Shown: in pieces, positions 2,273-38,684 of the stretch | How positions within the stretch are numbered: position 1 is the first letter of the stretch | Layout of the letters: each line of letters starts with the position of its first letter | NCBI GenBank assembly: GCA_031404155.1 | Contig: JANNGZ010000009.1 | Location: 1 to 63,668, forward strand | DNA: 63,668 bases | DNA from: Burkholderiales bacterium | Lineage (GTDB): Bacteria > Pseudomonadota > Gammaproteobacteria > Burkholderiales > Burkholderiaceae_C | Direction of reading: 5' to 3' | Notes under the pieces: model-generated | Told to the model about the DNA's origin: nothing | The model's input: the letters and a program-made list of their open reading frames with translations, nothing else | Database searches by the model: none | Program-made: the position numbers and the translations under genes

Positions 2273-2845
2273 TCACCGGGTCGTGACGATGGTCACGCGA
2301 CGATTCTCGGGTGCGTCGACGCGTTGGGTGTCCAGCAGTTCGCTGGAACCCTTGCCGACCGCAACCAGCCGTTCGGACAGGATGCCGCGCGCACTGACGA
2401 GGTAGTCCACGACCGCTTTGGCGCGCTGCTCGGACAGCGTCATGTTTCGCTCTGCCGCGCCTCGTGGATCGGCGTGGCCCTCGACGCGGAACGCGAAGCC
2501 CGCCAGCGTGTCCGATTGCAAAGCCCGGGCCACGGTGTCCAGGATCTTGATGCTGTCGTCGGTCAGCGTCGCGGAGTCGGTGAGGAAGGTGACCATCAGG
2601 TTCGCCTTTCCGGGGCCGGGCGCCCGGGCCGGATTGCCTTGGGCCGAGGTCGCCGGGCGGAAACCCCGCGTCTGGCCACCTTCGGCGGCCTGAGGTGCTT
2701 CGATCGCCAGCATGTCGACCAAGGTGTCCTCGGTGACCTGCGCGCCCTTCAGCACTTTGGCGGGCTGGGCCCATGCAGCCGAGGCCGGAAGTAGCAAAGT
2801 GGCCAGCAGGGCGGCCAGCCGGATGAATTGCGTCAAGGTCGACAT
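2273..2845 (-). CDS. secreted OmpA-like (peptidoglycan-binding) domain protein
   Basis: I chose the internal ATG at 2845 (MSTLTQFIRLAALLATLLLPASAAWA|QP, a signal peptide). The C-terminus (FRVEGHADPRG..NM.LS..RA.AV..YL......RL...G.G...........NRRV) is a classic OmpA_C-like fold. It lies 53 bp downstream of the TpsA gene on the same strand. Confidence 0.8.
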   Translation of the reverse strand: MSTLTQFIRLAALLATLLLPASAAWAQPAKVLKGAQVTEDTLVDMLAIEAPQAAEGGQTRGFRPATSAQGNPARAPGPGKANLMVTFLTDSATLTDDSIKILDTVARALQSDTLAGFAFRVEGHADPRGAAERNMTLSEQRAKAVVDYLVSARGILSERLVAVGKGSSELLDTQRVDAPENRRVTIVTTR

Positions 2846-2898: not shown

Positions 2899-5800
2899 TC
2901 AAGGCGCAAGCCCCTCGAGCCGGCGTTGCTCGAACAGGTAGTCGGACCCGGCTTCGTGGCGTGCGAGTCGGGCCGCGCCATATCGCGGGCGTTGCGGCAA
3001 CTCCCGCGCCACCGCGAACCGCACCTGTTCGAACACATTGCCGCCCGGGCGCCAAGTCGTCACCTTCTCGAGCGACCGCATCAGGTTCCAGGCAAAGGAC
3101 GAGTGGCCGTTCTTGCCGGCATCGGCGACCGGCTCGTTGCCGCCGGAGGACATCACGACCGCGGCGCGCCGGTTGAGCAGGACGCTCGGGTCGATCGTCT
3201 GCCCGAGGGCCCGGATGCGTTCGTCGGAGGCCAAGCTGCCCGAGAAGCAACTGTCGGAGATCAGGGCCACCTGGCTGGCGCCCATCTGGCCGAGCAACTT
3301 GCCGATGTCGTCGTTGGAGATCCAGGTCTGCGGCCGGGTTGCGTCGGCATTGGAGGGCTGCCAGTAGCCGAGCCCGGTCTTCTCCACCAACTCGCCGTGG
3401 CCGGCGTAATAGACCACCACCGAATCGTTGGGCTTGACCTGCACGGCCAGCCGATTGAGCGTGGCCAGGATCATCTCGCGCGTGCCGTCGCGGATGACCA
3501 GGGTTTCATATCCGAGTTCGTCGCCAAGGACCTTGGCGATGGCCTGGGCGTCCGCGCGCGCGTTGTCCAGCTTGGGAATACGCTTGTCTTCGAAGTTGTC
3601 GTTGCCAATGACGACGGCGATCTTGCGCTGGATTTGTGGCAGCGACGCTTGGCGCACGATGCGCTGGGACGGCAGGCTGACGACGACGGCGGGCGGGGCA
3701 GCCGCCGCGGTTGCTGTCCGTGCGGCAGCGGGTGCGGCAGCCGGCGCTGCAGGTGTCGGGGGCGCTGTCGCGGTCGCGGCCGTTGCGGGCGGTGGCGCGG
3801 CCGGCGCGGTGGTCGAGGCCACGGCGGCTGGCTTCGGCGCAGCCGAGGGCGACTCGATGGTCGCGGCTGCGGCGATCTGGGCCTTGAGTTCCTCGGTCAC
3901 GAGGCAGGTGCCGGTGTCGAGCTGCTCGACGGAGAGACACGCGGGCGCATCGGCCAGCGTCGGGTCGTTCTCGAGCAAGCGCACGGCTTCGCCGAAGAGC
4001 GACTTCTTGAACTTCCCGCGCGCGACGAGCAGGGTGGTCAGCTCTTCCAGCGACAGGTTGCCGACGTCCAGGCTTCCGAATGCGATCCTCCCGCCAGCCG
4101 GCTCGACGCTTATCGCCTGCAAGACGTCGAGGGTACGGCCGTCGGCGGGTGTGCTGAACCGCGCCGGCGGCAATACCGGCAGCTCGGTGAGGTCGGGCAG
4201 GATCGCTCGCGGTGACGCTGCGATCACCAGCGCCGTCGCATTGCCCGGGGCCTGCGCGAACGTGTAGTTCGCCGCTGTCAGCCCGGAGCCGGTCAGCGCA
4301 TAACTGCCCGGCAATTTCGGGTCCGCGGGCGTCAGCACGACAGGTGTTCCGCGGGTCGCGGTCGCCAGCGTGTCCGACCCGACGAGGCCCGTCACGTCGA
4401 CGCTCAAACCGGTCAGCGGTTGCCCCTCGAAGACGGTGACCGGCTTGGCCACATAGGTCAGCGTGGCTGGTGTGACCGAAGCCAGCGCGGTCGTGACCGG
4501 TTGAACCAGGCGGTAGTTCGCGCCGTCGCTGCCGCCCAGCGCCGTTGCGGTCGCGGTGACGGTTTTGACTTGCCCGACGTTCGGGTCTGCAAAGACACCC
4601 GAGCCGGATGCCACCGACACCTGATCTCCGGCGATGGCGCCGGACAAGGTCCAGCCGGTGACGGTTGCCGCCGCGCTGGCGTCGTAGATCTTGTCCGCGG
4701 CGGTCGCGGCCGTCACAGAAATGTCCCGCTGCGTGATGTTGGCGGTGGTGACCGTGCCGCCGCGCAGCGCGTAGTTGCCGGCCAGGCCGCCGTTGGTACC
4801 GTTGCCCAGGCCAGCGGTGATGTTCACGGTTTTGCCGGTGCCGGCGTTCTTGTTCTCGAACTGGGCACTGGGGCTGAAGGCCAGGCTTTCGGAGCCGACC
4901 AGGCCGGTGAGCGTGCCGCTGCCCACAAGCATGGCTGTGGTGTTGCCGTCATAGACCTTGTGGGCCGCGCTCACGCCGCTGAGCGTGAGCGGCCTGGGCG
5001 TGATGGCGGCCGTGGCGGTGACCACGCCGCTGCCGGGCAGCGCGTAGTTGGCCGCCAGGCCGCCGTTGGCGCCGTCCGCCAGCGCGACGGTGCCGGTGAC
5101 GGTCTTGCCCGTACCGGCGTCCTTGGTGTCGAACTGGCCGCTGGGGCTGAAGGTCAGGCGCTCGGAGCCGACCAGGCCGAAGAGCGTTCCGGTCAGCGTG
5201 GCCACGTTGTTGCCGTCGTAGACCTTGTCGGCCGCACTCACGCCACTTAGTGTGAGCGGCTTGCGCGTGATGTCGGCGGTGGTGGTGGCCGAGCCGCTGG
5301 CCAGCGCGTAGTTGGCAGCCAGGCCGCCGTTGGCGCCGTTGGCCAGCGCTCCCGCGAGGTAGACGGTCTTGCCGGTGCCGGCGTCCTTGGTGTCGAACTG
5401 GCCGGTGGGTATGAACGTCAAGCTCTCGGAGCCGACCAGGCCGCTGAGCGCGCCGCTGCCCAAGAGCGTGGCGGTGGTCGTGCCGTCATAGACCTTGCTG
5501 GCCGCACTCACGCCGCCGAGCGTGAGCGCCTGGGGGGTGACGTCGCCGATGACGTCAAAACCCGCCACGGTGTAGCCGTACGTGGTCTTGCCGTCCGCAT
5601 CGACGATCGAAGGCAGGCCGCCGAATCCGCTCACCGTGATCGACTTGGAGCGGCCGACGTTCTTGTCGGCGTAGCTCAAGGCGCTGTAGGTCAAGCTGCC
5701 GCTGGCGCGGTCGCTGTCGACGAGCCCGGTGAGTTGCAGCGACGCGCTTGTGGGCAGGACGGCCGTGTTGCCGTCGTATGTCTTGGTGATGGCTGCCCCG

Positions 5801-8800
5801 TTGACAACCGTCAGGGTGGGAGCCAAACCGAACAGCAGGCCGTTGCCGCTGCCGGCGGGGACCGCGGAGCCGTACAAGGCGTTGTACTGACGGAAATCGT
5901 GCACCAGACCGCCGGCATCGATCGAGCTGGGCCGGTCCGCATAGATCAGCCAGCGGCCATTCGGAGCGAACAGCGCGGTCGTGTTGGCCGAGTTGCCGAA
6001 GAAGTGGGTGTTCGGATTGCTGTTGCCGGCCACCGTGATGGCATCGCCGGTCGCGGAACCGGTCACGCGGCCACCGTAGATTTTCAGATCGTCGGCAAGC
6101 AGTTGGATCGGCGCGGAGATGTTGCTGATGCGGGGGAAGTCCTCACAGCCGCAACCGATCTGGATACTCGAGCTTTGAAGCCTCAGTGCAGCCGGGCCGG
6201 TGAAGCTCAGGTTGGAGGATCCCGTCACCCTGAGGGTCCCGGTGCCGCCGATGAAGGCTAGATTGGGCGAGCCTGCAATGGCGGCGCCGTCGATTCGGAT
6301 GTCGGCCGAAGCGATGTCAAGCCGGGTGGCGCCCCACGGGTTGCCGCTCCTGGGGGTCAGGATGCTGGTCAGCGATGTTCCCTCGCCATCGAAGTAGTCG
6401 AACAGCCCCACCGTGCCGTCCGGCGACCGGATCAGCAGGTTGCGCGCCCTGGAGGCATCGATCATCGAGGCCTGGCTGTAAACACCATAGTGGTAGCCGT
6501 TGTTGCTGGTGTTGTTGCCCAGAATCGTCAGGTCGGCGCCGTTCTTGGCGGTGATGCGCGAGAAGGGGTCGAGGTAAACGCCCGCGCGGTCCCTGTAGGT
6601 CGGCGCATCGGGTACCCGATCGTTCACCGTCCCGATCAGGGAGAGAGCCGGGTTGGACGAGTCGGCCGCGATGAGCGTGACCCCGCCATCGATCCGGGTT
6701 CCCGCCACCGAGCTGTTGGCGTGAAAGACGGGCGATATCGCCGTGCCCTCGACTGCCAGCGGCCCGGTCGAGGTCAGGTTGCCGCTGATCGAAACGCCGG
6801 TGCGGTTGGTGAAGTTCGCCGTTCCGATCACCGCTGAGCCGGCCGAATTTACCCAGCCTTTGATGTCCACGGCGGCGGCGGTGATCGTGCTGCCCGGCGA
6901 GACGCGAATCCCGTAGGCGTCGCTGTCGACGGCCGCGCTCGCGCCGCGCATCGTCAACGAACCCGAACCTGCGGCCAGCACGGATCCCACGATGCTGATC
7001 GCGGTACCGCGTGCATAGTTTGACCCCGGGTCGTTGTAGCCGACAGCGCCGGTGAAGGGCGAAGTCGCGGTCGGACCCACCAACTGCGTCAGGCCGCCCA
7101 GGTTGATGTTGCCGCCGGCGCTGGTGATCGTGGAGTTGTCGACGACGATCGTGCCGGCGCCTGCGGCGGCGGCGCGCAGATTCACGGCCAATGGTGAGCC
7201 GGCGCTGGAGATGGTCGAGTCGACGACGTCGATGTTCCGGCTCGCGGTCAGCGTCAGGCTCACCGGCGAGGAGGGCGCGACACTGAGGGTCGCCTGGCTC
7301 ATCGTGATGTCGCCGGCTTGGCTGCTCGGCGACGCCGAGCCGGTGGTGACCGTCACGTTGTTGCCGGCGTTCAGCGCCGAGACGATGCTGCTGCTGAGCA
7401 GGACGGCACCGTTCCCGGTCGTCCTGAAGTCCGGCCCGCCGGTGATGTTGGATTCGGGCGCGGCACTGTCGGTGATGAGGATGTTGTTCGGGTCCAGCAG
7501 CCAGGTTCCCGCGCGGCCCCTGGGTGCATCGGTGCGCACCGACGCCGGTTGGGCGTCGAGCCAGCCGCCCGAGGTCTCGATGAAGCCGCCGTTGCCGCCT
7601 CCGGGGCCGCCGCGGGCACTGAGGCTGCCGAACGCCCGCGTCGCCTGGTCGCTCCACAGGACGATTCGCCCACCGTCACCCAGCCCGGTGGCGTCGGCGC
7701 CGATGCTCGCCCCGGCCCCCATGTAAACCGCTTGCGCATTGGGTACCCCGGCGTCACGCCCCTGCACGCCGCCGCCGACCAGCACCTCGCCGCCGCCCTG
7801 AAGCCCCGAGGCGTCGACCACGGCACCGTCGACCATTCCGACCTGACGCCCGAGCAGCTTCACCGCGCCGCCCTGTGTTGCCTGGCCCACGGCTTCAACC
7901 CGGCCAGCGTGCATCGCCGTACCGCCGCCGGCGTCGAGCGTCACCTGGCCGCCTGCGCCGCCATTGGCGCTGGTCAAGCTGCCTGCTCCGGTGTTCAAGG
8001 ATTCACTGGCACGCAGCACCACCTGGCCGGCGGCGCCAGCGATCGAATCGGCACGCACGATCCCTTGCTGGTTGACGATCGCCGCGCTCAGGTCGACGAA
8101 GCCACCGCCGGCCGACAGGCTGCCCAGGTTCAGCGCCTGCCCCTGCGGCGCCTGCACGCGCACGGCCAGGTTGGGCAGGCCGGAGTCGACCAAATCCACA
8201 CTGTGACCGGCAGCGAGCACCACCTGCCCGCCGGGCGCCTCGACGAGGCCTTCATTGCGCACACCACCCGCACCACCGAGCAACAGAACCCGGCCGCCGG
8301 TCGTGGAGCGAAGCTCGCCCTGGTTGACCACTTCGGCGTGGCTGGCGCCAGGCAGGGTGCTGGACGACAGGCTCAGGCGCTGCGCCTGCCAGTTGGCGTT
8401 GCTGATGCTCAGCGTTGAGGTCACCAGCCCCGCCACATCGACGCGGGCGTCGCGTCCGAACAGGACACCGTTCGGGTTGAGCAACCACACCTTGCCGTTG
8501 CTGCTGATGCTGCCAAAGATGTTCGACGGGTCGTTGCCCACAACGCGGTTGAGCACCTGGCTCGTGGCGCTGGGCTGCTCGAAACGCACCGCATTGCCCG
8601 CGCCCACGGAGAAGGTCTGCCAGTTCAGCAACGCGTTGGCGCTGTTGGTCACCGTCATGCGGCTGCCGGTGACAGCCACGGAAGCTTGCCCCTGCACCAC
8701 GTTCAGACCGCTGGGCAGCGCTTGCGCGCGCACGTCCGCGGCGCCATACCGCAGCGCCAGCGGCGTGCCCATCGTGAGGGCCAGGGCCAGCGCCATCGGT

Positions 8801-8886
8801 TGAAGCCGGAAGCGGCGATGCGCACGGCGTGACGGCCCGACGCTCGCGGCTCTGGCCGTGCGGTGGCTGGTTGCAGTCTTGCTCAT
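2899..8886 (-). CDS. two-partner-secretion exoprotein (TpsA, filamentous-hemagglutinin family) with C-terminal caspase-like (peptidase C14) domain
   Basis: 1995 aa. Extended signal peptide, then a TPS domain (GLNVVQGQA..NWQTFSVG....V.F.QP......LNRVVG..PS.I.G.....G.VWLLNPNGVLFG). This is followed by long G/S/A/T-rich beta-helix sequence, about 90-aa KVYDG.. (YDG/MBG-type) repeats and an Ala/Pro-rich linker. The last 241 aa contain VVVYYAGHG (His codon 3397-3399) and ALISDSCFSG (Cys codon 3247-3249). Confidence 0.9.
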   Translation of the reverse strand: MSKTATSHRTARAASVGPSRRAHRRFRLQPMALALALTMGTPLALRYGAADVRAQALPSGLNVVQGQASVAVTGSRMTVTNSANALLNWQTFSVGAGNAVRFEQPSATSQVLNRVVGNDPSNIFGSISSNGKVWLLNPNGVLFGRDARVDVAGLVTSTLSISNANWQAQRLSLSSSTLPGASHAEVVNQGELRSTTGGRVLLLGGAGGVRNEGLVEAPGGQVVLAAGHSVDLVDSGLPNLAVRVQAPQGQALNLGSLSAGGGFVDLSAAIVNQQGIVRADSIAGAAGQVVLRASESLNTGAGSLTSANGGAGGQVTLDAGGGTAMHAGRVEAVGQATQGGAVKLLGRQVGMVDGAVVDASGLQGGGEVLVGGGVQGRDAGVPNAQAVYMGAGASIGADATGLGDGGRIVLWSDQATRAFGSLSARGGPGGGNGGFIETSGGWLDAQPASVRTDAPRGRAGTWLLDPNNILITDSAAPESNITGGPDFRTTGNGAVLLSSSIVSALNAGNNVTVTTGSASPSSQAGDITMSQATLSVAPSSPVSLTLTASRNIDVVDSTISSAGSPLAVNLRAAAAGAGTIVVDNSTITSAGGNINLGGLTQLVGPTATSPFTGAVGYNDPGSNYARGTAISIVGSVLAAGSGSLTMRGASAAVDSDAYGIRVSPGSTITAAAVDIKGWVNSAGSAVIGTANFTNRTGVSISGNLTSTGPLAVEGTAISPVFHANSSVAGTRIDGGVTLIAADSSNPALSLIGTVNDRVPDAPTYRDRAGVYLDPFSRITAKNGADLTILGNNTSNNGYHYGVYSQASMIDASRARNLLIRSPDGTVGLFDYFDGEGTSLTSILTPRSGNPWGATRLDIASADIRIDGAAIAGSPNLAFIGGTGTLRVTGSSNLSFTGPAALRLQSSSIQIGCGCEDFPRISNISAPIQLLADDLKIYGGRVTGSATGDAITVAGNSNPNTHFFGNSANTTALFAPNGRWLIYADRPSSIDAGGLVHDFRQYNALYGSAVPAGSGNGLLFGLAPTLTVVNGAAITKTYDGNTAVLPTSASLQLTGLVDSDRASGSLTYSALSYADKNVGRSKSITVSGFGGLPSIVDADGKTTYGYTVAGFDVIGDVTPQALTLGGVSAASKVYDGTTTATLLGSGALSGLVGSESLTFIPTGQFDTKDAGTGKTVYLAGALANGANGGLAANYALASGSATTTADITRKPLTLSGVSAADKVYDGNNVATLTGTLFGLVGSERLTFSPSGQFDTKDAGTGKTVTGTVALADGANGGLAANYALPGSGVVTATAAITPRPLTLSGVSAAHKVYDGNTTAMLVGSGTLTGLVGSESLAFSPSAQFENKNAGTGKTVNITAGLGNGTNGGLAGNYALRGGTVTTANITQRDISVTAATAADKIYDASAAATVTGWTLSGAIAGDQVSVASGSGVFADPNVGQVKTVTATATALGGSDGANYRLVQPVTTALASVTPATLTYVAKPVTVFEGQPLTGLSVDVTGLVGSDTLATATRGTPVVLTPADPKLPGSYALTGSGLTAANYTFAQAPGNATALVIAASPRAILPDLTELPVLPPARFSTPADGRTLDVLQAISVEPAGGRIAFGSLDVGNLSLEELTTLLVARGKFKKSLFGEAVRLLENDPTLADAPACLSVEQLDTGTCLVTEELKAQIAAAATIESPSAAPKPAAVASTTAPAAPPPATAATATAPPTPAAPAAAPAAARTATAAAAPPAVVVSLPSQRIVRQASLPQIQRKIAVVIGNDNFEDKRIPKLDNARADAQAIAKVLGDELGYETLVIRDGTREMILATLNRLAVQVKPNDSVVVYYAGHGELVEKTGLGYWQPSNADATRPQTWISNDDIGKLLGQMGASQVALISDSCFSGSLASDERIRALGQTIDPSVLLNRRAAVVMSSGGNEPVADAGKNGHSSFAWNLMRSLEKVTTWRPGGNVFEQVRFAVARELPQRPRYGAARLARHEAGSDYLFEQRRLEGLAP
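4600..5560. repeat. in-frame tandem repeats (period 267-270 bp, at least 4 copies) inside the TpsA gene
   Basis: The landmark (T/C)AGA(C/T)CTTG recurs at 4685, 4952, 5219 and 5489. The encoded units are KVYDG(T/N)..ATL.G...GLVGSE.L(T/A)F.P.GQFDTKDAGTGKTV......GANGGLAANYAL. Boundaries are approximate. Confidence 0.7.
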
Positions 8887-8943: not shown

Positions 8944-10569
8944 TCAAATCGTGTAGACAACCGAGAAATGGGCCCGCGCGTCGTTCTTGCGGGTACGTAC
9001 CGCGTCGCGCAGCGCACCGGCAAGGGCCAGCCGCGCTTGCAGCCTGCCCCATTCAAAGCGGGAGCCGATCCCCAAGGACGCGAGCGAGCACCGCGCAGAG
9101 GTGCCCAGGCAAGGTGTGCCGAAGTGGTTGAAAGCCTGGCCGGCATCGGCGAAGGCGAAAATCCGCAGCACCCGGTCGGCCGGCCCGACCAGCGGCATCA
9201 GGTTCGGGCCGGTCAGTTCGACCGACACCAGCAAGCCTTGATCGCCCAGGACTTCGCGTTCTTGGTAGCCGCGCACGGAGTTAACACCGCCGATGCCGTA
9301 CTGCTCGCCGGGAACCAGCGCATCGGCGCTGAACTGACCCGCGAAACGCACGCGCAGGTCCCACGCCTCGGCCACCGCCATGCTGGCGAACGCGCCGTAG
9401 TGCAGCGCCGTGTAGCGCACCCTGGCGTCGGGCCGCACCGCCGCGAAGCTGGCGGCGTCGGAATAGCGACCGCCGAGTTTCAGGTTGGTCTGCAAGGACG
9501 CCGACAGCCCGAACGCGGGCGCCCCGCCTGACTGCAGGCTGTAGCCCAACGACAAGGGCTGCACCGACACGCTGGCGCCGGCTGTGCCGCAAGCACCCGC
9601 AGGCAGCCCGGCGATGCCGCAGCGGTTGAGGTATTCGCGGTTGTCCACACCGAGCGAAACGCGCTGGTCGGCTTCGCCAACACGGGGCAGATACCAGGTC
9701 CCGCGCACGCCAGCGATGCGGCCGTTGCCGTTGAAGCGCAAGTCACCCGCGGCCGTGGGGACGGACCCGCCGTCGACATCCGAGTAGGCGGCAAAGGCGT
9801 CGACCACCATCAGCTGCTTGTAGCGCGGAAAGCGGTATCCGGCGCTGAGGACCCGGACCCGGTCGGGTTGTGTGGGTGAGGTCTGGAACTGCGCCGTGAA
9901 CACGTCGTCGTGCCCGCTCAGGTTGGCGTGTTGCCAGGCGACGCTGGCGCGGTACTCTCCCGTGCCGCTGGTGCCCGTGTTGTCCAGGGCCAGCGTCACG
10001 TGCCGCAGCGACCCTTCCTGCACCGTCACCTCGGCTTCGGTCTCACCGGGGCCGCTTCCGGGTTTGAGCAGTACGCGCACCCGCTTGGACGGGTTCTCGT
10101 TGGAGATCTGCATCTGGGCGTCGATCCTGCGCATGCGCGGCGTGGCACCAACGACCAGATCGGGCAGGCTCGCCCGGATGTTGGCTTCGTTGAAAACCTG
10201 CGCGCCACGAACATTCACGGCCGAAACCCGGCCCTCCACCACCACCAGCGAGATGACGCCGTCGCTGCGGGTTTGCGGCGGCACGTAGGCGACCACGCCG
10301 CCATAGCCCATGTCGACGTAGAGCCGCTGCACCGCCCGAGCCGCTGCGCCAAGTTCCTCCAGGGTGCGCCGCCCTTTGAACGGTGCCAGCGCGCGCTCGA
10401 TCGCCTCAGCGGTCACCAGCGTGTTGCCGCTGACCTGGAATGCGGTGACCTCGACCGACGCGGGTGTTGCGGCGTCGGCAGCGTAGGCTGGCGACCCGCC
10501 GGCGATGGCAAGCACCAGGACGATCGACGCTGCGGCTCGCCGGCCGCGTACCAACGCCTCAATTGCCAT
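8944..10569 (-). CDS. TpsB outer-membrane transporter (ShlB/FhaC/HecB family)
   Basis: 541 aa. Signal peptide (..GGSPAYA|AD), a POTRA-like N-terminus (F.VSGNTLV....IE.AL.PF.GR..TLEEL..A...V...Y...GY) and a C-terminal beta-barrel with alternating aromatic pattern ending ..AHFSVVYTI. It lies 57 bp upstream of the TpsA gene. Confidence 0.85.
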   Translation of the reverse strand: MAIEALVRGRRAAASIVLVLAIAGGSPAYAADAATPASVEVTAFQVSGNTLVTAEAIERALAPFKGRRTLEELGAAARAVQRLYVDMGYGGVVAYVPPQTRSDGVISLVVVEGRVSAVNVRGAQVFNEANIRASLPDLVVGATPRMRRIDAQMQISNENPSKRVRVLLKPGSGPGETEAEVTVQEGSLRHVTLALDNTGTSGTGEYRASVAWQHANLSGHDDVFTAQFQTSPTQPDRVRVLSAGYRFPRYKQLMVVDAFAAYSDVDGGSVPTAAGDLRFNGNGRIAGVRGTWYLPRVGEADQRVSLGVDNREYLNRCGIAGLPAGACGTAGASVSVQPLSLGYSLQSGGAPAFGLSASLQTNLKLGGRYSDAASFAAVRPDARVRYTALHYGAFASMAVAEAWDLRVRFAGQFSADALVPGEQYGIGGVNSVRGYQEREVLGDQGLLVSVELTGPNLMPLVGPADRVLRIFAFADAGQAFNHFGTPCLGTSARCSLASLGIGSRFEWGRLQARLALAGALRDAVRTRKNDARAHFSVVYTI

Positions 10570-10827: not shown

Positions 10828-12666
10828 TCAGCGAACCACTTCGACGGTGAAGCGCGCCGCGCCGTAGACGTCGCAGTTCGCGCCCACGCAATCGGCCTTA
10901 CCGGCCAGGGCCGAACCATTGCCGGCATGGGCGCGCGCCACCGTGAGCGTCGAGTCACCGGTATCGATCTTCAGGAACCCGTATGCGCTGACGACGGTAT
11001 GGCCAAAGCCGGAGAAGTCCCGCTCGTGCTCGGAAACGATCACGATCACCTGCGCAATGCCGATCGGCTCGGCCGCGACGATCGCCCAACTGGGTTGCGG
11101 CAATGCCAGGGTCTGCCCCGCCGCGATCCGGTTCTGGCTCGACTTGCCGTTGGGGAACATGCGGTACAGCGATCCGTCGGGGTCGTTCCAAAGTACGTAG
11201 ACAAATCCGGCCCGGCTGGACGTGACGGTGAAGGCCAGCTTGTCCTTGTCGATGCGCAGCAGCGTCCTGCGCGCGCTCGCCTCGACGCTGAAGCCTGCAG
11301 TCTGGGCGCCGACGATGCGGTCGAACTCGTCGGGCACCGAGAGCGGCCGCGCTGCGGCAGGCGTCACGGCGGCGGGCGGCACGGGCGCGGGGACAGCGAC
11401 CCTGCCCGGCAACGCCGCGTCCTGACCGCGCGTGGAGGCGTCCGGCGCAGGCCGAATGACGGTTGAACCCGTGGGCGGCCCGGCACCCGGGCGCAAAGCC
11501 AGAAACGCCGCGAGTCCCGCGACCGCGAGTGCGCTCGCGCCGACGCCGAACCAGATGCGCCCGCGGCCCTTGCCCGTGGCGCCAGCGCCGTTGTTTGCAG
11601 CACGGCGGCTGGCCGCGTCGCCGGGGCGAGGCGCGTTCGGTTCGCCGATGAGCGTCGAATCGAAGAACGATGCCGGAAGCGTCTCCAGGCCTTCGGCCAC
11701 ATGCACCGCCAGGCCGAGTTCCGCACGCAGGTCATTGATGGTCCGGGTGCGATCCTCGGGCTTGACGCGCAGTGCACGGTCGATCGCGCGCAGGAAAGGG
11801 TCGCTGTAGCGCCTCGCAGCCAGCTCCGCCAGCGGCACATAGGTGTCGCTCAGCATGCGGCCCACGGCCGTCGGTGGCGTCTTGCCCGCGATCGCGAAGT
11901 ACACGCAGGCGGCGAGCGCGTAGACATCGGTCCACGGGCCCTGTTTCATGCTGTCGACCTCGGCGTACTGCTCCACCGGCGCGTAGCCGGGCTTCAGGAT
12001 CACGGTGAGCGCCTGGGTCATGTCGCCGATCACGCGCCGCGCGGCGCCGAAGTCCAGCAGCAAGGGGCGCCCCGAGCCCTCCAGCAGGATCACGTTGTCC
12101 GGCGCGATGTCACGGTGGAAGCAGCTCTCGGCATGGATCACGTTGAGCGCCTCGGTCAGCGGCCCGAGGATGCCCATGAGCCAGCTCTCGTCCGGCGGGC
12201 CTGCGGACTCGCGCAGCTTGTCCTTCAGGGTGATGCCCTGGTAGAAGGGCATCACCATGTACGCGGTACCGTTGGCCTCCCAGAAACGGTAGACCTTGAC
12301 CAGCGCCGGGTGGTCGAACTGCGCCAGCAAGCGCGCTTCATTGACAAAGCTTCTCAGGCCGGCCGTGAAAGTCTCGCGATGCCGCTCCGACTTCACCACC
12401 ACCTGCGAGCCCCCGGTGCGCGCCGCGAGCGCCGAGGGCATGTACTCCTTGAGCGCGACGCGGCGGCCGAGCGAAAGGTCCATCGCCAGGTACACGATGC
12501 CGAATCCGCCTTCGCCCAGCACACGCGTGAGTTCGAACTCGGCAAGCCTGGTGCCCTCGGGCAGGGCGTTGCGATAGTCGATCGTCGGGGCGGCAGCGGC
12601 GGGCAGCGGCGGGCCGCTGTGTGCTGCTGGGCGGATCAGCGTGCGGTCGTCGTCGTCAGTGCTCAT
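10828..12666 (-). CDS. transmembrane Hanks-type Ser/Thr protein kinase with C-terminal DUF4384-like periplasmic domain
   Basis: LGEGGFGIVY..VALKEY (G-loop/Lys), HRDIAPDNVIL, DFGAAR and GYAPVEQY. One TM helix (IWFGVGASALAVAGLAAFLAL). The C-terminus (KLAFTVTSSRAGFVYVLWNDPDGSLYRMFPN......RIAAGQTLALP......AAEPIGIAQVIVIVSE) fits the DUF4384 pattern. Confidence 0.9.
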   Translation of the reverse strand: MSTDDDDRTLIRPAAHSGPPLPAAAAPTIDYRNALPEGTRLAEFELTRVLGEGGFGIVYLAMDLSLGRRVALKEYMPSALAARTGGSQVVVKSERHRETFTAGLRSFVNEARLLAQFDHPALVKVYRFWEANGTAYMVMPFYQGITLKDKLRESAGPPDESWLMGILGPLTEALNVIHAESCFHRDIAPDNVILLEGSGRPLLLDFGAARRVIGDMTQALTVILKPGYAPVEQYAEVDSMKQGPWTDVYALAACVYFAIAGKTPPTAVGRMLSDTYVPLAELAARRYSDPFLRAIDRALRVKPEDRTRTINDLRAELGLAVHVAEGLETLPASFFDSTLIGEPNAPRPGDAASRRAANNGAGATGKGRGRIWFGVGASALAVAGLAAFLALRPGAGPPTGSTVIRPAPDASTRGQDAALPGRVAVPAPVPPAAVTPAAARPLSVPDEFDRIVGAQTAGFSVEASARRTLLRIDKDKLAFTVTSSRAGFVYVLWNDPDGSLYRMFPNGKSSQNRIAAGQTLALPQPSWAIVAAEPIGIAQVIVIVSEHERDFSGFGHTVVSAYGFLKIDTGDSTLTVARAHAGNGSALAGKADCVGANCDVYGAARFTVEVVR

Positions 12667-13178: not shown

Positions 13179-13685
13179 ATGAACAGTGTTCACGAAAAGC
13201 TCGCACGTGTCCGCAAACCTCGCGTGCATATCACTTACGACGTCGAAACCGAAGGTGCGGCGGTGACGCGCGAATTGCCCTTTGTCGTGGGTGTCTTGGG
13301 CGACTACGCAGGCGACCCCACGGAGCCGATCAAGCCCCTGGCGGAGCGGAAGTTCGTCCAGATCGACCGCGACAACTTCAACGACGTGATGGCGCGCGTG
13401 GCGCCCGGCTTGCGTCTGAAGGTGGACAACACGCTGGCGGGAGACGGTTCACAGATGGCCGTGGACCTGAAGTTCAAATCGATGGCGGACTTCGACCCGG
13501 CCAAGGTGGCAGAGCAGGTGCCCGCCCTGAAGGCGATGCTCGAAACGCGCTCTCGCCTGCGCGACCTGGTCAGCAAGGCCGACCTGTCCGAAGAACTCGA
13601 AAGCCTGCTCGAGCAGGTGCTGCAGGACAAATCGAAGCTGGACGCGCTGTCCGCCGAACTCGGCATCAAGAAGCAAGAGGGCTGA
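13179..13685 (+). CDS. tssB: T6SS contractile sheath small subunit TssB (VipA/ImpB)
   Basis: 168 aa. [11 protein letters not shown]...[13 protein letters not shown] is a canonical TssB signature. Confidence 0.95.
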
Positions 13686-13689
13686 ACCC

Positions 13690-15192
13690 ATGAGTGCGAC
13701 CAAAGCCAAAGGTGGTGACGCGTCCGTCGTCACCACCACCACCACCGAAGGCGGCCTGGGTCTGCTCGACCAGGTGATCGGCGCCACGAAGCAGACCGAG
13801 CGCGACCGCGCCGAAGAGCTGATCCGCGCGCTGACCGAAGAGGCGCTGAAGGGGACCGTCACCTTCAGCCGCAATCTGGTGGTCACCTTCGACCGCGCCA
13901 TTGCCGAGATCGACCGCAAGGTGTCCGAGCAACTCAACGCGATCATGCACAACGAGCGTTTCCTCAAGCTCGAAGGCAGCTGGCGCGGGCTGAGCTACCT
14001 CGTGATGAACAGCGAGACCGGCACCAGCCTGAAGATCCGGATGCTGCAACTGCCGAAAAAGGAGATGGCCAGGGATCTGCAGAAGGCGGTTGAGTTCGAC
14101 CAAAGCCAGCTCTTCAAGAAGATCTACGAGAACGAATTCGGCACGCCGGGCGGCGAGCCCTACGGCGCGCTGATCGGGGATTACGAGTGGACGGCCCACC
14201 CCGACGACGTCGAGACGCTGCGCCTGGTCTCCAACGTGGCGGCCGGCGCATTCGCGCCCTTCATCTCCGGCGTCGGCGCCGGCATGTTCGGCTTCGATAA
14301 CTGGAGCGAGCTGTCCAAGCCGCGCGACCTGGCCAAGATCTTCGAGACGGCCGAGTACACCAAGTGGCGCGGCTTCCGCGAAACCGAGGACTCGCGCTTC
14401 GTCAACCTGGTCATGCCGCGGGTGATCTCGCGCGTGCCCTACGGTGCTGCGACCAAGGCGGTCGAGGAATTCAGCTACGAGGAAGCGCCGGTCAACACAG
14501 ACGGCTCTGCCAAGGCGATGGATCACGACCACTACTGCTGGATGAATGCGGCCTACGTGATGGGCACCCGGCTGACGGACGCCTTCGCCCAATACGGCTT
14601 CTGTACCGCGATCCGTGGCGCCGAAGGCGGCGGCAAAGTCAACGACCTGCCCACGCATACTTTCACCTCCGACGATGGTGACGGCGACGCCAAGTGCCCG
14701 ACCGAGATCGGCATCACCGACCGGCGCGAGGCCGAGTTGTCCAATCTCGGCTTCCTGCCCCTTTGCCACTACAAGAACACCGACTACGCGGTGTTCTTCG
14801 GCGCGCAGTCGGCGCAGGCACCGAAGAAGTACGACCGGCCCGACGCCACCGCGAATGCGGCCATCTCGGCACGCCTGCCCTACGTCATGGCCACGAGCAG
14901 GTTTGCGCACTTCCTGAAGGTCATGGCACGCGACAAGATCGGGTCGTTCATGGAAGCCTCGGACTGTGAGATCTGGCTCAACCGCTGGATTCAGAACTAC
15001 GTGAATCCGATGGAGGGCGGCGGGCAGGAATCGCGAGCCAAGTACCCCTTGCGCGAAGCCAAGGTCGAGGTCAAGGAAATCCCGGGGAAGCCCGGCTCCT
15101 ACAACGCAGTTGCCTATCTGCGCCCCTGGCTGCAGATGGAAGAGCTGACAACGTCGATGCGAATGGTGGCGCGTATTCCGCAGAAGTCCTGA
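13690..15192 (+). CDS. tssC: T6SS contractile sheath large subunit TssC (VipB/ImpC)
   Basis: 500 aa. [30 protein letters not shown] and [10 protein letters not shown]...PGKPG.Y.AV..LRP..Q.E. Confidence 0.95.
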
Positions 15193-15213: not shown

Positions 15214-16737
15214 ATGGTCGATGCGGGCAAAGAAACGCTCCGGGAAACGGTGCTTTCCGGGCGTTTGCTGAGCCACGCGTCCGCCGCCTCCGATCTCGCG
15301 GTGCTGGTGGCCTCTTCTGATGCCGCTACGCACTTGCGGCTGTGGTTCGGCGAAGGGTGGCTCGCCTCTCTGGCGGCGCAGGGCCAGCCCGCGGAAGTCC
15401 TGCGCGCTGCGGTCGACAGGGACATCACCGCCATCGACGCGCTGGTGTCGAGCCAGCTCGACGCGGTGCTTCACCATCCCCGGCTTCGTCGGCTTGAAGG
15501 GTCCTGGCGCGGGCTGGCGTGGCTCGCGGGCCGCGTGCCCCAAACCGGCACCCGCATCCGCCTGAAGCTGCTGCACGCGCGGTGGGCCGAGGTTTGCCGC
15601 GACATCGAGCGTGCGCTCGAGTTCGACCAGAGCCATCTCTTTCGCAAGATCCACGACGAGGAGTTCGGCATGGCGGGCGGCGCACCCTTCGGGCTCATCG
15701 CTGCCGACTATGAAATCCGGCACCGGTCGGCGCTTCATCATCCCACCGACGACGTCGGTGCCCTCTCGGGTTTGGCCGGCATTGCAGCAGCTGCCTTCTC
15801 GCCGATGATCATCGGCGCTTCGCCGGAGTTTTTGGGTCTGGACAGCTTCGCCAATGCGTCGCCGAGTTTCGACCCCACCGTCGCTATTCGGGGGCCCGAC
15901 CATCAGCGTTGGCGAAACGCGGCGGCGCGCGAGGACTTGCGATTCATCGGTATCGCCCTGCCTCGCGTGTTGGCTCGCGCGCCCTGGGTTGACGATGGCA
16001 GTCGCGTCGACCGATTTCGCTATCGCGGTTTCACCCCTGGCGTGGCGCAACGGGTCTGGACGAGCCCGGTCTACGGCTTCGCCGCCGTCGCCATCCGTGC
16101 CTTCGACCGCTATTCCTGGCCGGCGGAGGTGCGCGGCGCCGATATCTCGGACGAGGCCCAGGGCGGCGTGCTCGATGGCCTGCCGTTCGAGTGTTTCTAC
16201 TCCGATCTTGCGCATGAAGCGCCGGCCAGGGCACCCGTGGAAGTTGCGCTCACCGACCAGCAGGAAGACCAGATCAGCGAGGCCGGTCTGATTCCTTTGT
16301 CCGCGCTCGATGGTCTGTCCGAGGCCTGTTTTGGCGCTTTACCGTCCCTGCACCGGCCGCCCTCAATGTCCACCTCTGTGGCGCAAGCCAATCAGCGTCT
16401 GTCGGCTCAACTCAACACGATACTGTGTGTCAGTCGCTTTGCCCATTGCGTCAAGCTGATGGGGCGCGACATGGTCGGCAGCTACGCCGAAGCAGGCGAA
16501 GTGGAGACTCGGCTGCAGCGTTGGCTCAACGGCTTCGTCAGCGGCATCGGTTCCGGAGGCGCCGAGGTCACGGCCAAGTACCCCTTGCTGGAAGCCCGGG
16601 TGGAAGTACGCGAACGGTCCGGCCGTCCCGGCGTGTACAACTGCACCGTTCACCTCAAGCCGCACCACCAACTCGACGACATTGGTGCTTCGTTCAGGCT
16701 GGTGACCGAATTCGTACCGCGACAGGCCGCCGCCTGA
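15214..16737 (+). CDS. second, divergent TssC-family sheath paralog (ImpD/TssC40-like)
   Basis: 507 aa. It aligns by eye to the preceding TssC ([15 protein letters not shown]; EEFGMAGGAPFGLIAADYE; KYPLLEARVEVRERSGRPGVYNCTVHLKPHHQL) but is clearly diverged. Confidence 0.85.
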   Translation: MVDAGKETLRETVLSGRLLSHASAASDLAVLVASSDAATHLRLWFGEGWLASLAAQGQPAEVLRAAVDRDITAIDALVSSQLDAVLHHPRLRRLEGSWRGLAWLAGRVPQTGTRIRLKLLHARWAEVCRDIERALEFDQSHLFRKIHDEEFGMAGGAPFGLIAADYEIRHRSALHHPTDDVGALSGLAGIAAAAFSPMIIGASPEFLGLDSFANASPSFDPTVAIRGPDHQRWRNAAAREDLRFIGIALPRVLARAPWVDDGSRVDRFRYRGFTPGVAQRVWTSPVYGFAAVAIRAFDRYSWPAEVRGADISDEAQGGVLDGLPFECFYSDLAHEAPARAPVEVALTDQQEDQISEAGLIPLSALDGLSEACFGALPSLHRPPSMSTSVAQANQRLSAQLNTILCVSRFAHCVKLMGRDMVGSYAEAGEVETRLQRWLNGFVSGIGSGGAEVTAKYPLLEARVEVRERSGRPGVYNCTVHLKPHHQLDDIGASFRLVTEFVPRQAAA

Positions 16738-17567: not shown

Positions 17568-18076
17568 GCCAAGCCGGTACAACGCCACCAGGTTCGCGCC
17601 ACGCGCCCAAGCGCGTTCGCCTGCCGCTGCTGGACCGGCTGCTGGATGCCGATCCGGATGCGCCGGAATTACCGCCTCCCTCGGCGGCCGAGGCGCTGGA
17701 GAAGCTGCACCTGGCTGTGCGCCGCGACCTCGAGTCCTTGCTCAACGCGCGCCGCCGCCGCCAACCGCTGCCGCCGCACCTGCCTGAACTGGCGAGTTCG
17801 CTTGTCAACTACGGCATCCCCGACCCCAGTTCGGGCGCCTACTCGGTGCCGGCGTTGCGCGCTGCGCTGGTGCGCGAGGTTGAAACAACGATCCGTCGTT
17901 ACGAGCCTCGTCTGACCCAGGTTTCGGTGTTGCTGGTGGGTGAGGACGACGAACTTGGCGGGACCCTGCGCATGAAGGTCGACGCGGTACTGCGGGCCGA
18001 CCCGGTGCCCGAGCCGGTGAGCTTCGAGACTTTGCTCGAACCGGTAACGCGCGACGTCACGGTACGTGAAACCTGA
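17564..18076 (+). CDS. tssE: T6SS baseplate protein TssE (gp25-like)
   Basis: LLDRLLD......L......A...L...V.RDLE.LLN.RR.......L..S...YGIPD........VE..I.RYEPRL. The start is uncertain. I propose the in-frame TTG at 17564, which overlaps the tagJ stop; the ORF is open from 17459. Confidence 0.75.
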   Translation: MSQAGTTPPGSRHAPKRVRLPLLDRLLDADPDAPELPPPSAAEALEKLHLAVRRDLESLLNARRRRQPLPPHLPELASSLVNYGIPDPSSGAYSVPALRAALVREVETTIRRYEPRLTQVSVLLVGEDDELGGTLRMKVDAVLRADPVPEPVSFETLLEPVTRDVTVRET

Positions 18077-37302: not shown

Positions 37303-38684
37303 TGAGCGACAACCCCTTCAGCGAACCCGACGACGACGATCGCACCATCATCCGAAGCTCCGGCGGCGCGAAGCCTTCGCTGCGACCGCCGGCCGCAGCG
37401 CCGCTGCGCACCGCCGCGCCGTTTCCGCCGCCGCCCGCACCGATGGCGCAGCGTCTGGCAGGCGAAGCCGAAGCGCTGCCCAGCGTGGGCATCTCGCCGA
37501 TTGCCGCCGCCGCCGCACCGCTGCTCGACCTGCTCGGCCGCATCGGCGCCGGCGCTCAGGCCACACAGGTGAACAACGTCGAAGAACTGCGCGAGCGCGC
37601 GGTCCGCGAGTTGCAGGCCTTCGAAGCCCGCTGCACCGCGGCCCATGTCGCGGAGGACCAGCTTCGTGCATCGCACTACGCGCTCTGCGCCGCACTCGAC
37701 GACGTGGTGCTGGCCACCCCCTGGGGCCAGTCGAGCAGCTGGGGCACACGTTCGCTCAGCTCCACGTTCCACCAGGATGTGCGTAGCGGCGAGCGCTTCT
37801 TCGACCTTCTCGGCGGCATGCAGAAGGACCCCGGGCGTTACCGCGCGGCGCTCGAGATCTGCTACTTGTGCCTCTCGGTGGGATTTCGCGGCCGCTACCG
37901 TCTGGACAGTCGTGGCAACGCCGAAATCGATCGCATGCGCGAAGGGCTTTACCAGCTGCTCAGTCAATTGCGGGGCGGCTGGGAGCGCGAACTGTCGCCG
38001 CGGTGGCGCGGCGTGGATGCGCCGCACCGCGGCCCCGGGCGCAGCGTTCCGGCCTGGGTCGCGGCAGCGGTGGCGCTGGCCGTGCTCGCCTTCGGCTACA
38101 TGCTGGTCGCCAACTCGGTGAACAACACCGGCGATGCGCTTCAGCAGCGCCTGGTGCAGTTGCCACCAGCCACCTTGCCGACCATCGAGCGCAGCGCGCC
38201 GCTGATCGCACCGGCTGCGGCGCCGCCGTCCGGGCCCGACCTGGTCGCGACGATCAGCCAGTTTCTGCAACGCGAGGTCCGCGACGGCCTGGTCGTGGTG
38301 CAGGGCGACATGCAGCGCGTGCTGATCCGCGTCAAGGGCCGCGGCATGTTCGCTTCCGGCATGGCCGATGTCGAGCCGAGCTTCGTCGCGCTGCTGCAGC
38401 GCATCGGCGAAGCCTTGAAGGCCGAACCGGGCCAGGTCATGGTGCTCGGTCATTCCGACAACCAGCCGATTCGAACCGTGCGCTTCCCGTCCAATTTCCA
38501 GCTCTCGGCCGCACGCGCTGACTCGGCGAAGAACATCCTGTCCGCGGCGACCGGCCAGCCTGCGCGTTTCGCCTCGGCCGGACGGGCCGACAACGAGCCG
38601 CTGAAGTCCAATGCAACGCCCGAGGGCCGGGAAGACAACCGGCGCATCGAGATCCTGTTGTCGCGCAGCGGGGGCGCCCGGTGA
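37302..38684 (+). CDS. tssL: T6SS membrane-complex protein TssL (DotU/ImpK) with C-terminal OmpA-like peptidoglycan-binding domain
   Basis: I chose the ATG at 37302 (MSDNPFSEPDDDDRTIIR), preceded by GGAGGTTGCC. DotU region (A.YALCA.LDD.VL.TPWG...W...SL...FH.....GE.FF..L), one TM helix, then GHSDN.PI......SN..LS.ARA......L............GR....P........GR..NRR.EI. Confidence 0.85.
   Translation: MSDNPFSEPDDDDRTIIRSSGGAKPSLRPPAAAPLRTAAPFPPPPAPMAQRLAGEAEALPSVGISPIAAAAAPLLDLLGRIGAGAQATQVNNVEELRERAVRELQAFEARCTAAHVAEDQLRASHYALCAALDDVVLATPWGQSSSWGTRSLSSTFHQDVRSGERFFDLLGGMQKDPGRYRAALEICYLCLSVGFRGRYRLDSRGNAEIDRMREGLYQLLSQLRGGWERELSPRWRGVDAPHRGPGRSVPAWVAAAVALAVLAFGYMLVANSVNNTGDALQQRLVQLPPATLPTIERSAPLIAPAAAPPSGPDLVATISQFLQREVRDGLVVVQGDMQRVLIRVKGRGMFASGMADVEPSFVALLQRIGEALKAEPGQVMVLGHSDNQPIRTVRFPSNFQLSAARADSAKNILSAATGQPARFASAGRADNEPLKSNATPEGREDNRRIEILLSRSGGAR

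Follow-up and report, generated by a model that had tools for sequence, protein, structure and literature searches.

The 63,668-nucleotide (nt) stretch of DNA analyzed here (the window), from contig JANNGZ010000009.1 of the Burkholderiales bacterium assembly GCA_031404155.1, encodes a TpsA exoprotein of a two-partner secretion (TPS) system that ends in a Peptidase_C14 caspase domain. The presence of a C14 caspase domain at the end of a TpsA protein is confirmed at a level far beyond chance. The tpsA-caspase gene is the middle member of three closely spaced, co-directional genes on the minus strand, between tpsB and an ompA-like gene, and its architecture is that of a large conserved family and not a one-off. 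A TPS system with a repeat-rich filament passenger and a terminal enzyme that has been kept intact is firmly supported.

Profile searches, structure prediction, and alignment were used to identify the carboxyl-terminal domain. It matches Peptidase_C14 (PF00656) with E = 1.1e-20 and 74.7 bits, compared with a gathering score of 21.4, and the match covers positions 1 to 224 of the 233 in the profile. An AlphaFold2 (AF2) model of residues 1742 to 1995, built from 57 homologues, has a predicted local distance difference test (pLDDT) score of 90.4 and a predicted template modeling (pTM) score of 0.90. Foldseek comparison of the model with the PDB gives the MALT1 paracaspase as the best match (E = 6.5e-12, template modeling score 0.68), and the top matches are all clan-CD C14 enzymes. 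The other matches include the Yca1, C. glabrata, AtMC4, and AtMC9 metacaspases, the bacterial protein GSU0716, and caspases 9, 3, 7, 6, and 11. An earlier note on this DNA, made from the sequence alone, had proposed a caspase-like domain with the catalytic His in VVVYYAGHG, the catalytic Cys in ALISDSCFSG, and a p10-like SSGGNEP...GHSSFAWNL segment behind them. The profile match and the predicted fold bear out the domain assignment, both motifs and their codons are exact (His1830 and Cys1880; Table 1), and the p10-like segment is present after Cys1880. The two residues align with the catalytic positions of AtMC4 and AtMC9. His1830 falls on the His of the metacaspase 'SGHG' motif, Cys1880 falls on the Cys of 'ISDSCHSG' in AtMC4, and when the family profile is aligned with PDB sequences Cys1880 sits where the AtMC9 active-site mutant C147A has its Ala.

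Active-site conservation was scored in 144 family representatives whose caspase domains have diverged to ~47% identity. The His, the Cys, their flanking Gly and Ser residues, and three Asp residues (Asp1779, Asp1878, and Asp1922; D38, D137, and D181 in domain numbering) are invariant in 144 of 144. The invariance of the dyad and the three acidic residues argues for an intact protease and points to a domain that is active. Its maintenance in a catalytically intact state by selection is firmly supported. Asp1779 corresponds to the Asp of 'GCIND' in Yca1 (metacaspase 'GCxND'), Asp1878 is the Asp of the 'DSC' motif, and Asp1922 corresponds to the Asp of 'SAD' in the Yca1 p10 segment. In the TbMCA2 structure, the residues at the positions of Asp1779 and Asp1878 reportedly form the acidic S1 pocket. 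All characterized non-caspase C14 enzymes cut after Arg or Lys owing to an acidic pocket (PMC5756287). The aligned invariant Asp residues, read with this rule, suggest that cleavage by the TpsA domain is probably Arg/Lys-directed. A basic pair (Arg1906-Arg1907) lies between the p20-like and p10-like parts in 143 of the 144 representatives and could, as a speculation, be an autoprocessing site. The catalytic Cys is the only Cys within the caspase domain.

More specialized assignments of the domain were considered and set aside. The EACC1-associated caspase model (NF047832) scores 71.8 to 75.8 bits against a cut-off of 140. An anti-phage defense caspase was also rejected, as PADLOC gave only a generic 'caspase' match of low score (24.5 bits, E = 3.5e-6) and no partner genes. 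Peptidase_C80, the MARTX/TcdB-type family, gave no match, and Pfam at E ≤ 0.01 returned Peptidase_C14 alone for the carboxyl-terminal region.

The protein that carries this domain has the class features of a TpsA, namely an amino-terminal TPS domain with an NPNG motif and a cognate TpsB with POTRA_2, ShlB, and Omp85 matches encoded alongside. The TPS domain matches PF05860 with E = 1.8e-29 (103.8 bits vs 33.5) and TIGR01901 with E = 8.6e-23. The Pfam matches of TpsB are ShlB (E = 4.9e-27), POTRA_2 (E = 6.5e-14), and Omp85. The TpsA identity put forward in the earlier note thus stands on the TPS domain and on the cognate TpsB directly upstream. The amino terminus reads MALALALTMGTPLALRYGAADVRAQA behind a basic extension and is signal-peptide-like by appearance. 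The start codon is ambiguous (8794-8886). The public gene call begins at Met31 (8794-8796) and gives a protein of 1965 residues (P0136), and a similar basic amino-terminal extension precedes the hydrophobic signal sequence in many homologues. This pattern suggests that the longer start, with an extended signal peptide, is real.

Between the TPS domain and the repeats is a stretch without Pfam matches that is presumably a β-helix. It contains a 'CGC' motif (Cys912 and Cys914; residues 912-914, window 6142-6150), and these are the sole cysteines of TpsA besides those of the Cys loop described below and the catalytic Cys. The repeat stalk that follows has five YDG stretches (E = 3.8e-67), with YDG motifs at residues 1037, 1133, 1223, and 1312 and an MBG_2 match at residues 1476-1549. 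The passenger ahead of the terminal module varies, and total length ranges from ~1300 to 3600 residues among the long representatives of the family. YDG repeats are present in most of the long representatives, and other repeats are found in Solimonas and Curvibacter.

A small folded domain sits between the repeat stalk and the linker. AF2 predicts a β-hairpin, a long helix, a loop framed by Cys1650-x10-Cys1661, and a second helix, with a pLDDT of 86 to 92 over the core. In the model the two Cys residues flank a loop that is closed by a β-bridge. Family alignment shows that L67, C79, G88, and C90 of the domain are invariant, so that both Cys residues and one loop Gly are fixed. A Cys-x(5-20)-Cys pair lies ahead of the caspase in all 140 representatives with enough upstream sequence, and the spacing is exactly 10 in 127 of these, against a median Cys count of only 3.5 per protein. 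The domain has no Pfam match at E ≤ 1, no PDB relative by Foldseek (best E = 3.2), and no match in a tblastn search of plasmids. Two large-database searches, one with the single sequence and one with a 37-sequence alignment, were empty, and the word-index method and the short query are probably the cause rather than a true absence.

The linker between the Cys-loop domain and the caspase is composed of 41% Ala, 23% Pro, and 12% Thr, as expected from the A/P/T-rich linker described in the earlier note. This richness in Ala and Pro is not a family constant. Family linkers are 20 to 156 residues long (median 63.5), and enrichment in Ala and Pro is missing from the short ones. The constant unit is the Cys-loop domain, a spacer of any length, and the caspase. 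The spacer in Curvibacter cyanobacteriorum (locus L015, ~9400-10000) contains a long perfect Pro-Ala dipeptide run, encoded by a hexanucleotide-type repeat that could change length.

An exhaustive hidden Markov model search of 1.84 billion cluster representatives was used to define the family. The best 150 matches all have E < 1e-94, and 145 of them are new. Among the new representatives, 105 are at least 1300 residues long with the caspase at the very carboxyl terminus, and a TPS domain is recognizable at the amino terminus of 97 of the 105. The family comprises at least 145 clusters at 50% identity and is spread across alpha-, beta-, and gammaproteobacteria. Uninterrupted TPS-to-caspase open reading frames (ORFs) of 1737 to 2801 residues are present in seven reference-genome loci, which include Rubrivivax sp., Aquabacterium sp., Pseudaquabacterium pictum W35, Curvibacter cyanobacteriorum HBC61, and Solimonas aquatica DSM 25927. 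A tblastn search of plasmids found the same TPS...Peptidase_C14 architecture on Azospirillum megaplasmids at 40% identity, where the RefSeq name of the protein is 'filamentous hemagglutinin N-terminal domain-containing protein'. Pfam matches for Azospirillum lipoferum 4B, Solimonas aquatica, and Curvibacter bear out this architecture.

The first homology search had returned mostly proteins of 240 to 440 residues on short contigs. In three loci from metagenome-assembled genomes (MAGs) the caspase is out of frame with TpsA, and the frame changes within the GC-rich linker (L001, 9773-10049; L010, ~10285-10546; L002, 5120-11167), and public gene calls there yield stand-alone 'caspase family proteins' of 250 to 390 residues. 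These frameshifts are probably assembly indels, and some may be real pseudogenes or slippage. Stand-alone 250-residue caspase genes were considered as the ancestral state and rejected, the loci being ones with frameshifts or contig fragments. One carboxyl-terminal caspase fragment (P0028, 267 residues, Piscinibacter sakaiensis) is named 'polysaccharide deacetylase' in NCBI and UniRef, which looks like a mis-annotation; no contig location was found for P0028.

The arrangement of the three genes resembles that of a transcription unit. The gap from tpsB to tpsA is 57 nt, with tpsB directly 5' of tpsA, and the ompA-like gene starts 53 nt past the tpsA stop codon behind a GGAG-like ribosome-binding site. 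Shine-Dalgarno-like sequences precede both tpsA and the ompA-like gene, and a 258-nt gap separates tpsB from the next gene 5', which encodes a Ser/Thr kinase-DUF4384 protein. From these gaps and ribosome-binding signals, tpsB, tpsA-caspase, and the ompA-like gene look like one operon. The signal peptide of the OmpA-like protein ends in AWA-QP, and a conserved amino-terminal motif, VLKxxQVTE...GxTRxxRP, stands ahead of its peptidoglycan-binding domain. The order is conserved, tpsB being kept 5' of tpsA-caspase in 10 related loci.

The genes 3' of tpsA-caspase divide the family. In clade 1 (Burkholderiales) an OmpA_C-like gene is directly 3' in 10 of 10 loci with visible downstream sequence. Clade 2 (Solimonas, Curvibacter, and locus L014) is without YDG repeats and has a conserved secreted protein of 261 to 283 residues, of no assigned family, directly 3', plus one or two CHASE2-domain membrane proteins nearby. 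The conserved partner genes of both clades are all periplasm-facing. A survey of metacaspases found OmpA genes in 14 metacaspase operons and one caspase-CHASE2 fusion (PMC3501461), which shows that both associations recur beyond the TpsA-caspase family.

Table 1. Coordinates of the TpsA-caspase locus, its domains and active-site codons, neighboring secretion genes, and clade 2 partner genes (positions are those of the window unless a locus number is given).
Feature	Position	Strand	Description	Basis
ompA-like gene	2273..2845	(-)	190-residue secreted OmpA_C-like peptidoglycan-binding protein	Pfam OmpA, E = 2.7e-19
tpsA-caspase ORF	2899..8886	(-)	1995 residues; coordinates take in the stop codon	
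Peptidase_C14 (metacaspase-like) domain	2902..3663	(-)	residues 1742-1995; Pfam envelope, residues 1754-1970	
Predicted S1 pocket, three invariant Asp	3121..3552 (span)	(-)	Asp1779, 3550-3552; Asp1878, 3253-3255; Asp1922, 3121-3123	
Catalytic Cys1880 codon	3247..3249	(-)	in ALISDSCFSG	aligned with AtMC4 'ISDSCHSG'
Catalytic His1830 codon	3397..3399	(-)	in VVVYYAGHG	aligned with metacaspase 'SGHG' His
A/P/T-rich linker, disordered	3652..3849	(-)	residues 1680-1745, 66 residues	composition; AF2 pLDDT ~50
Cys-loop domain, small and folded	3856..4113	(-)	~residues 1592-1677 (~85 residues)	AlphaFold model and family conservation
YDG/MBG_2 repeat stalk	4219..5889	(-)	~residues 1000-1556	Pfam
TPS secretion domain	8083..8727	(-)	residues 54-268; NPNG motif ('LLNPNGVLFG')	Pfam PF05860, TIGR01901
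tpsB	8944..10569	(-)	541-residue Omp85-type transporter, POTRA_2 and ShlB/FhaC barrel	Pfam
Type VI cluster, VipA	13179-13685			
Type VI cluster, tandem VipB paralogues	13690-15192 and 15214-16737			
Type VI cluster, TssF	18066-19910			
Type VI cluster, ClpV-like AAA+	28078-30765			
Type VI cluster, VgrG	31468-33432			
Type VI cluster, TssM	38681-42241			
Clade 2 partner gene, L013	11015-11800			
Clade 2 partner genes, L015	10808-11659 and 13046-14530			
Clade 2 partner gene, L014	1452-3560			

The reading favored here is a three-gene type Vb operon that builds a filament and retains the caspase in the periplasm as a processing or tethering module. As a complete model it is tentative and stands somewhat short of an even chance. 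The passenger would form a surface filament made of a long β-helix and the YDG/MBG repeats. The TPS domain would dock on the POTRA domains of TpsB, and the filament would be threaded out and fold outside. The Cys1650-Cys1661 loop domain would stall translocation, and the spacer and caspase would be held on the periplasmic side of TpsB, like the FhaB prodomain and the HMW1/HxuA disulfide anchor. Held there, the caspase could serve TpsA as a processing or tethering device of its own, working with the periplasmic, OmpA-like binder of peptidoglycan that is co-transcribed with it. Cleavage would be after basic residues, and the target would be TpsA itself, so that the filament matures or is shed, or else a periplasmic partner, for example the OmpA-like protein. 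Retention is favored because the invariant Cys loop resembles the HMW1/HxuA disulfide anchor and because the FhaB prodomain, with its Pro-rich region, likewise stays inside. It is also favored because the conserved partners all face the periplasm and because the module co-varies with the TPS domain while the length and repeat content of the passenger vary. In HMW1 and HxuA a periplasmic disulfide-bonded loop locks the carboxyl terminus in TpsB, and the FhaB prodomain remains intracellular (PMC5422565).

Several points weigh against this reading. Most TpsA proteins are fully secreted, and the carboxyl-terminal toxin domains of CdiA eventually cross TpsB. The Cys loop lies ~330 residues before the carboxyl terminus, whereas the HMW1/HxuA anchors are at the extreme carboxyl terminus. 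The OmpA partner is missing from clade 2, and where it is present it could anchor TpsB to the envelope in a general way or confer immunity in the periplasm. The family is also not uniform. Plasmid AZO_p4 of Azospirillum lipoferum 4B encodes a divergent TpsA-caspase of 1769 residues (L019, 7405-12714; WP_275451551.1) in which an Ig-like, Glucodextran_B-type domain replaces the Cys-loop domain. Its gene has no adjacent tpsB or ompA and is flanked by ParA and metabolic genes, and such Azospirillum variants are a better fit to an exported effector. The S1-pocket assignment, for its part, is a prediction that draws on alignment and on the pocket residues of TbMCA2.

The main rival is that the whole of TpsA, caspase included, crosses TpsB and that the enzyme is an extracellular or contact-dependent effector protease. 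It would act from the far end of the filament or once set free, in parallel with the LepA exoprotease, and its targets would be proteins of neighboring bacteria, hosts, or prey, or surface proteins of the producing cell. This explanation is rather doubtful, being well below an even chance, and it has substantial points in its favor. Complete secretion is the default for TpsA proteins, the active site is strictly conserved, the sole Cys of the caspase is catalytic and so presents no block to unfolded passage, and the Azospirillum variants have no Cys loop. A protease TpsA, LepA, is known (PMC5422565), and carboxyl-terminal caspase-like domains have been proposed as toxins of other secretion systems (PMC3482391). 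The invariant Cys-loop domain just before the spacer, the periplasm-facing partner genes, and the precedents of carboxyl-terminal retention in FhaB, CdiA, and HMW1 (PMC5422565) argue against export. A distinctly improbable variant of delivery is a CdiA-like polymorphic toxin, in which a contact-delivered caspase is paired with the OmpA-like protein as its periplasmic immunity protein. The position of the caspase at the extreme carboxyl terminus, the small gene directly 3', and the existence of a Tox-Caspase class (PMC3482391) are compatible with this scheme. The protein, however, lacks a VENN-like or pretoxin motif, Pfam gives no match to FHA-1/FHA-2 or DUF637, and the window holds no second caspase copy and no orphan caspase/immunity cassette. 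The gene 3' encodes a generic peptidoglycan-binding OmpA_C fold that is conserved across genera, and Tox-Caspase is listed for type II, type VI, and type VII secretion systems (T2SS, T6SS, and T7SS) and for the PVC system, not for the type V secretion system (T5SS) (Zhang et al. 2012, PMC3482391). Identity to the window protein was compared for the two ends of TpsA in 100 representatives, and the values for the caspase follow those for the TPS domain (Spearman 0.69, p = 1e-15), with medians of 53% and 55%. The two ends have thus been inherited together and not recombined, which makes the module a fixed part of TpsA and no swappable toxin.

A non-catalytic caspase fold serving as a structural plug or binding module has a precedent in the bacterial pseudo-orthocaspases (PMC6426788). 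It is very improbable here: those pseudo-variants carry Tyr and Ser instead of the His-Cys dyad, and the TpsA family has kept the dyad and the three putative pocket Asp residues in every representative scored in spite of its divergence. An artefactual or decaying fusion, in which a lost stop codon, a frameshift, or mis-assembly has brought tpsA and an independent caspase gene into one ORF, would account for the many database matches of 240 to 270 residues named 'caspase family protein' and for the out-of-frame caspases of L001, L010, and L002. This explanation is effectively refuted by the single uninterrupted ORF in seven genome loci of different genera and by the 97 long representatives. The split loci come from MAG assemblies and have several frameshifts, some of them elsewhere in the gene, the short matches are mostly on contigs of 1 to 3 kb, and partial proteins of 380 to 440 residues read through the Cys-loop domain, linker, and caspase. 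A last alternative keeps the caspase in the periplasm and gives it a signaling role. The filament would be a contact or tension sensor and its foot a latent Arg/Lys-specific protease, a 'receptor-caspase' working from the outside in, and engagement would activate the enzyme. The Cys-loop plug, together with the OmpA-like protein as wall anchor, would restrain the caspase, or in clade 2 the caspase would be coupled to the CHASE2 sensors, and it would cut envelope tethers or signaling proteins to bring about filament release, envelope remodeling, or regulated lysis. This scheme is unlikely. If true, it would be a bacterial analogue of death-receptor-to-caspase signaling built on type Vb secretion.

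The TpsA-caspase was compared with the closest known systems. Metacaspases and their bacterial homologues (Yca1, TbMCA2, AtMC4/9, GSU0716 with PDB entry 3BIJ, and the orthocaspase MaOC1) share the C14 fold, the 'GHG' and 'DSCxSG' dyad motifs, a basic pair before strand 1, the p10-like 'SGGxxEPxxD' segment, and the putative acidic pocket residues. They differ in location, as the domain in the window is at the extreme carboxyl terminus of a secreted TpsA of ~2000 residues and would be exposed to the envelope or the exterior rather than the cytosol. They differ also in the region of the Ca-binding 'DExDGxDE' loop, which reads 'GLGYWQPSNAD' here. The extra domains of orthocaspases are usually carboxyl-terminal to p20 (PMC5756287), and TpsA-caspase runs counter to this placement. 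Bordetella FhaB also has a TpsA carboxyl-terminal region after a Pro-rich stretch, which stays periplasmic and governs maturation and release (PMC5422565, PMC8263021). FhaB has no protease of its own and is processed in trans by DegP, CtpA, and SphB1, and no sequence similarity was detected between FhaB and the window TpsA. HMW1 and HxuA have two conserved Cys residues that form a loop toward the TpsA carboxyl terminus and are proposed to lock it in or under TpsB, and the corresponding disulfide is a prediction here. Their anchor occupies the last 20 to 66 residues, whereas a spacer and a 250-residue enzyme follow the loop in the TpsA-caspase proteins.

Clan-CD peptidases are found in other very large secreted proteins. 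The Tox-Caspase and releasing caspase-like peptidases (PMC3482391) and the C80 cysteine protease domains of MARTX and TcdB are proposed to be self-processing or carboxyl-terminal toxin domains. They are associated with T2SS, T6SS, T7SS, PVC, and TcdB-type export, and only HINT is listed for T5SS (PMC3482391). The window domain is C14 proper, is not polymorphic, and has no Imm36-type neighbor. LepA of the Pseudomonas aeruginosa LepA/LepB pair is a TpsA with proteolytic function (PMC5422565) that is not described as a caspase-fold enzyme. The AtaA-TpgA system resembles the locus in that a type V adhesin, in this case a trimeric autotransporter, shares its operon with a gene for a periplasmic peptidoglycan binder of the OmpA_C-like kind. 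AtaA belongs to type Vc and the window system to type Vb, and the match to the TpgA model NF047726, one among the generic OmpA matches, is weak (26.8 bits against a cut-off of 350), which makes this an analogy only.

The surroundings of the operon were also inspected. The gene directly 5' of tpsB (10828-12666, minus strand) encodes a Ser/Thr protein kinase with a carboxyl-terminal DUF4384. The kinase domain resembles the defense kinases PD-T4-6 and Mad6 (E = 1e-39 to 1e-42), which is a generic kinase similarity. The gene was rejected as a component of the system and treated as a neighbor, as it is near tpsB only in the closest relatives (L002 and L003). A complete-looking type VI secretion cluster adjoins the TPS operon (window 13179-42241, ~13.2 to 43 kb), and T6SS genes are also near the tpsA-caspase operon in L001, L002, and L004. 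This adjacency may be plain synteny among relatives. An unannotated 339-residue protein encoded after the OmpA-like gene in L001 has a homologue in the window (43607-44386, minus strand; 46% identity). The homologue lies ~40 kb off, at the far end of the T6SS cluster, and has no Pfam match.

Both components of TpsA-caspase are well known, and their combination is already in public databases as automatic annotation. In the literature no paper was found that describes or studies the TPS-caspase architecture. Papers joining two-partner secretion with caspases were host-caspase papers only, and none was found that joins an orthocaspase or CHAT domain with hemagglutinin or that treats Peptidase_C14 and Haemagg_act together. 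The combination of TpsA/TpsB with metacaspase gave only Zhang 2012, and the surveys of prokaryotic metacaspases are silent on hemagglutinin or TPS architectures. The evidence for TpsA-caspase is so far architectural only.

The known cargoes of TpsA proteins are adhesins, cytolysins, contact-dependent growth inhibition toxins, a heme-binding protein, and one exoprotease. Caspase homologues are common in bacteria, yet to our knowledge a substrate or a cellular role has been established for hardly any of them. The TpsA-caspase family ties an invariant C14 protease to a defined secretion machine and a defined partner gene, and it is carried by the cultured strains Azospirillum lipoferum 4B, Solimonas aquatica DSM 25927, Curvibacter cyanobacteriorum HBC61, and Pseudaquabacterium pictum W35. 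For the metacaspase field it would offer an enzyme of the cell envelope that is tractable by experiment, and TpsA and the OmpA-like protein are its candidate substrates. If the domain is exported, it would be the first caspase-type effector delivered by a T5SS. For the field of type V secretion, it offers a possible self-processing counterpart of the FhaB prodomain.

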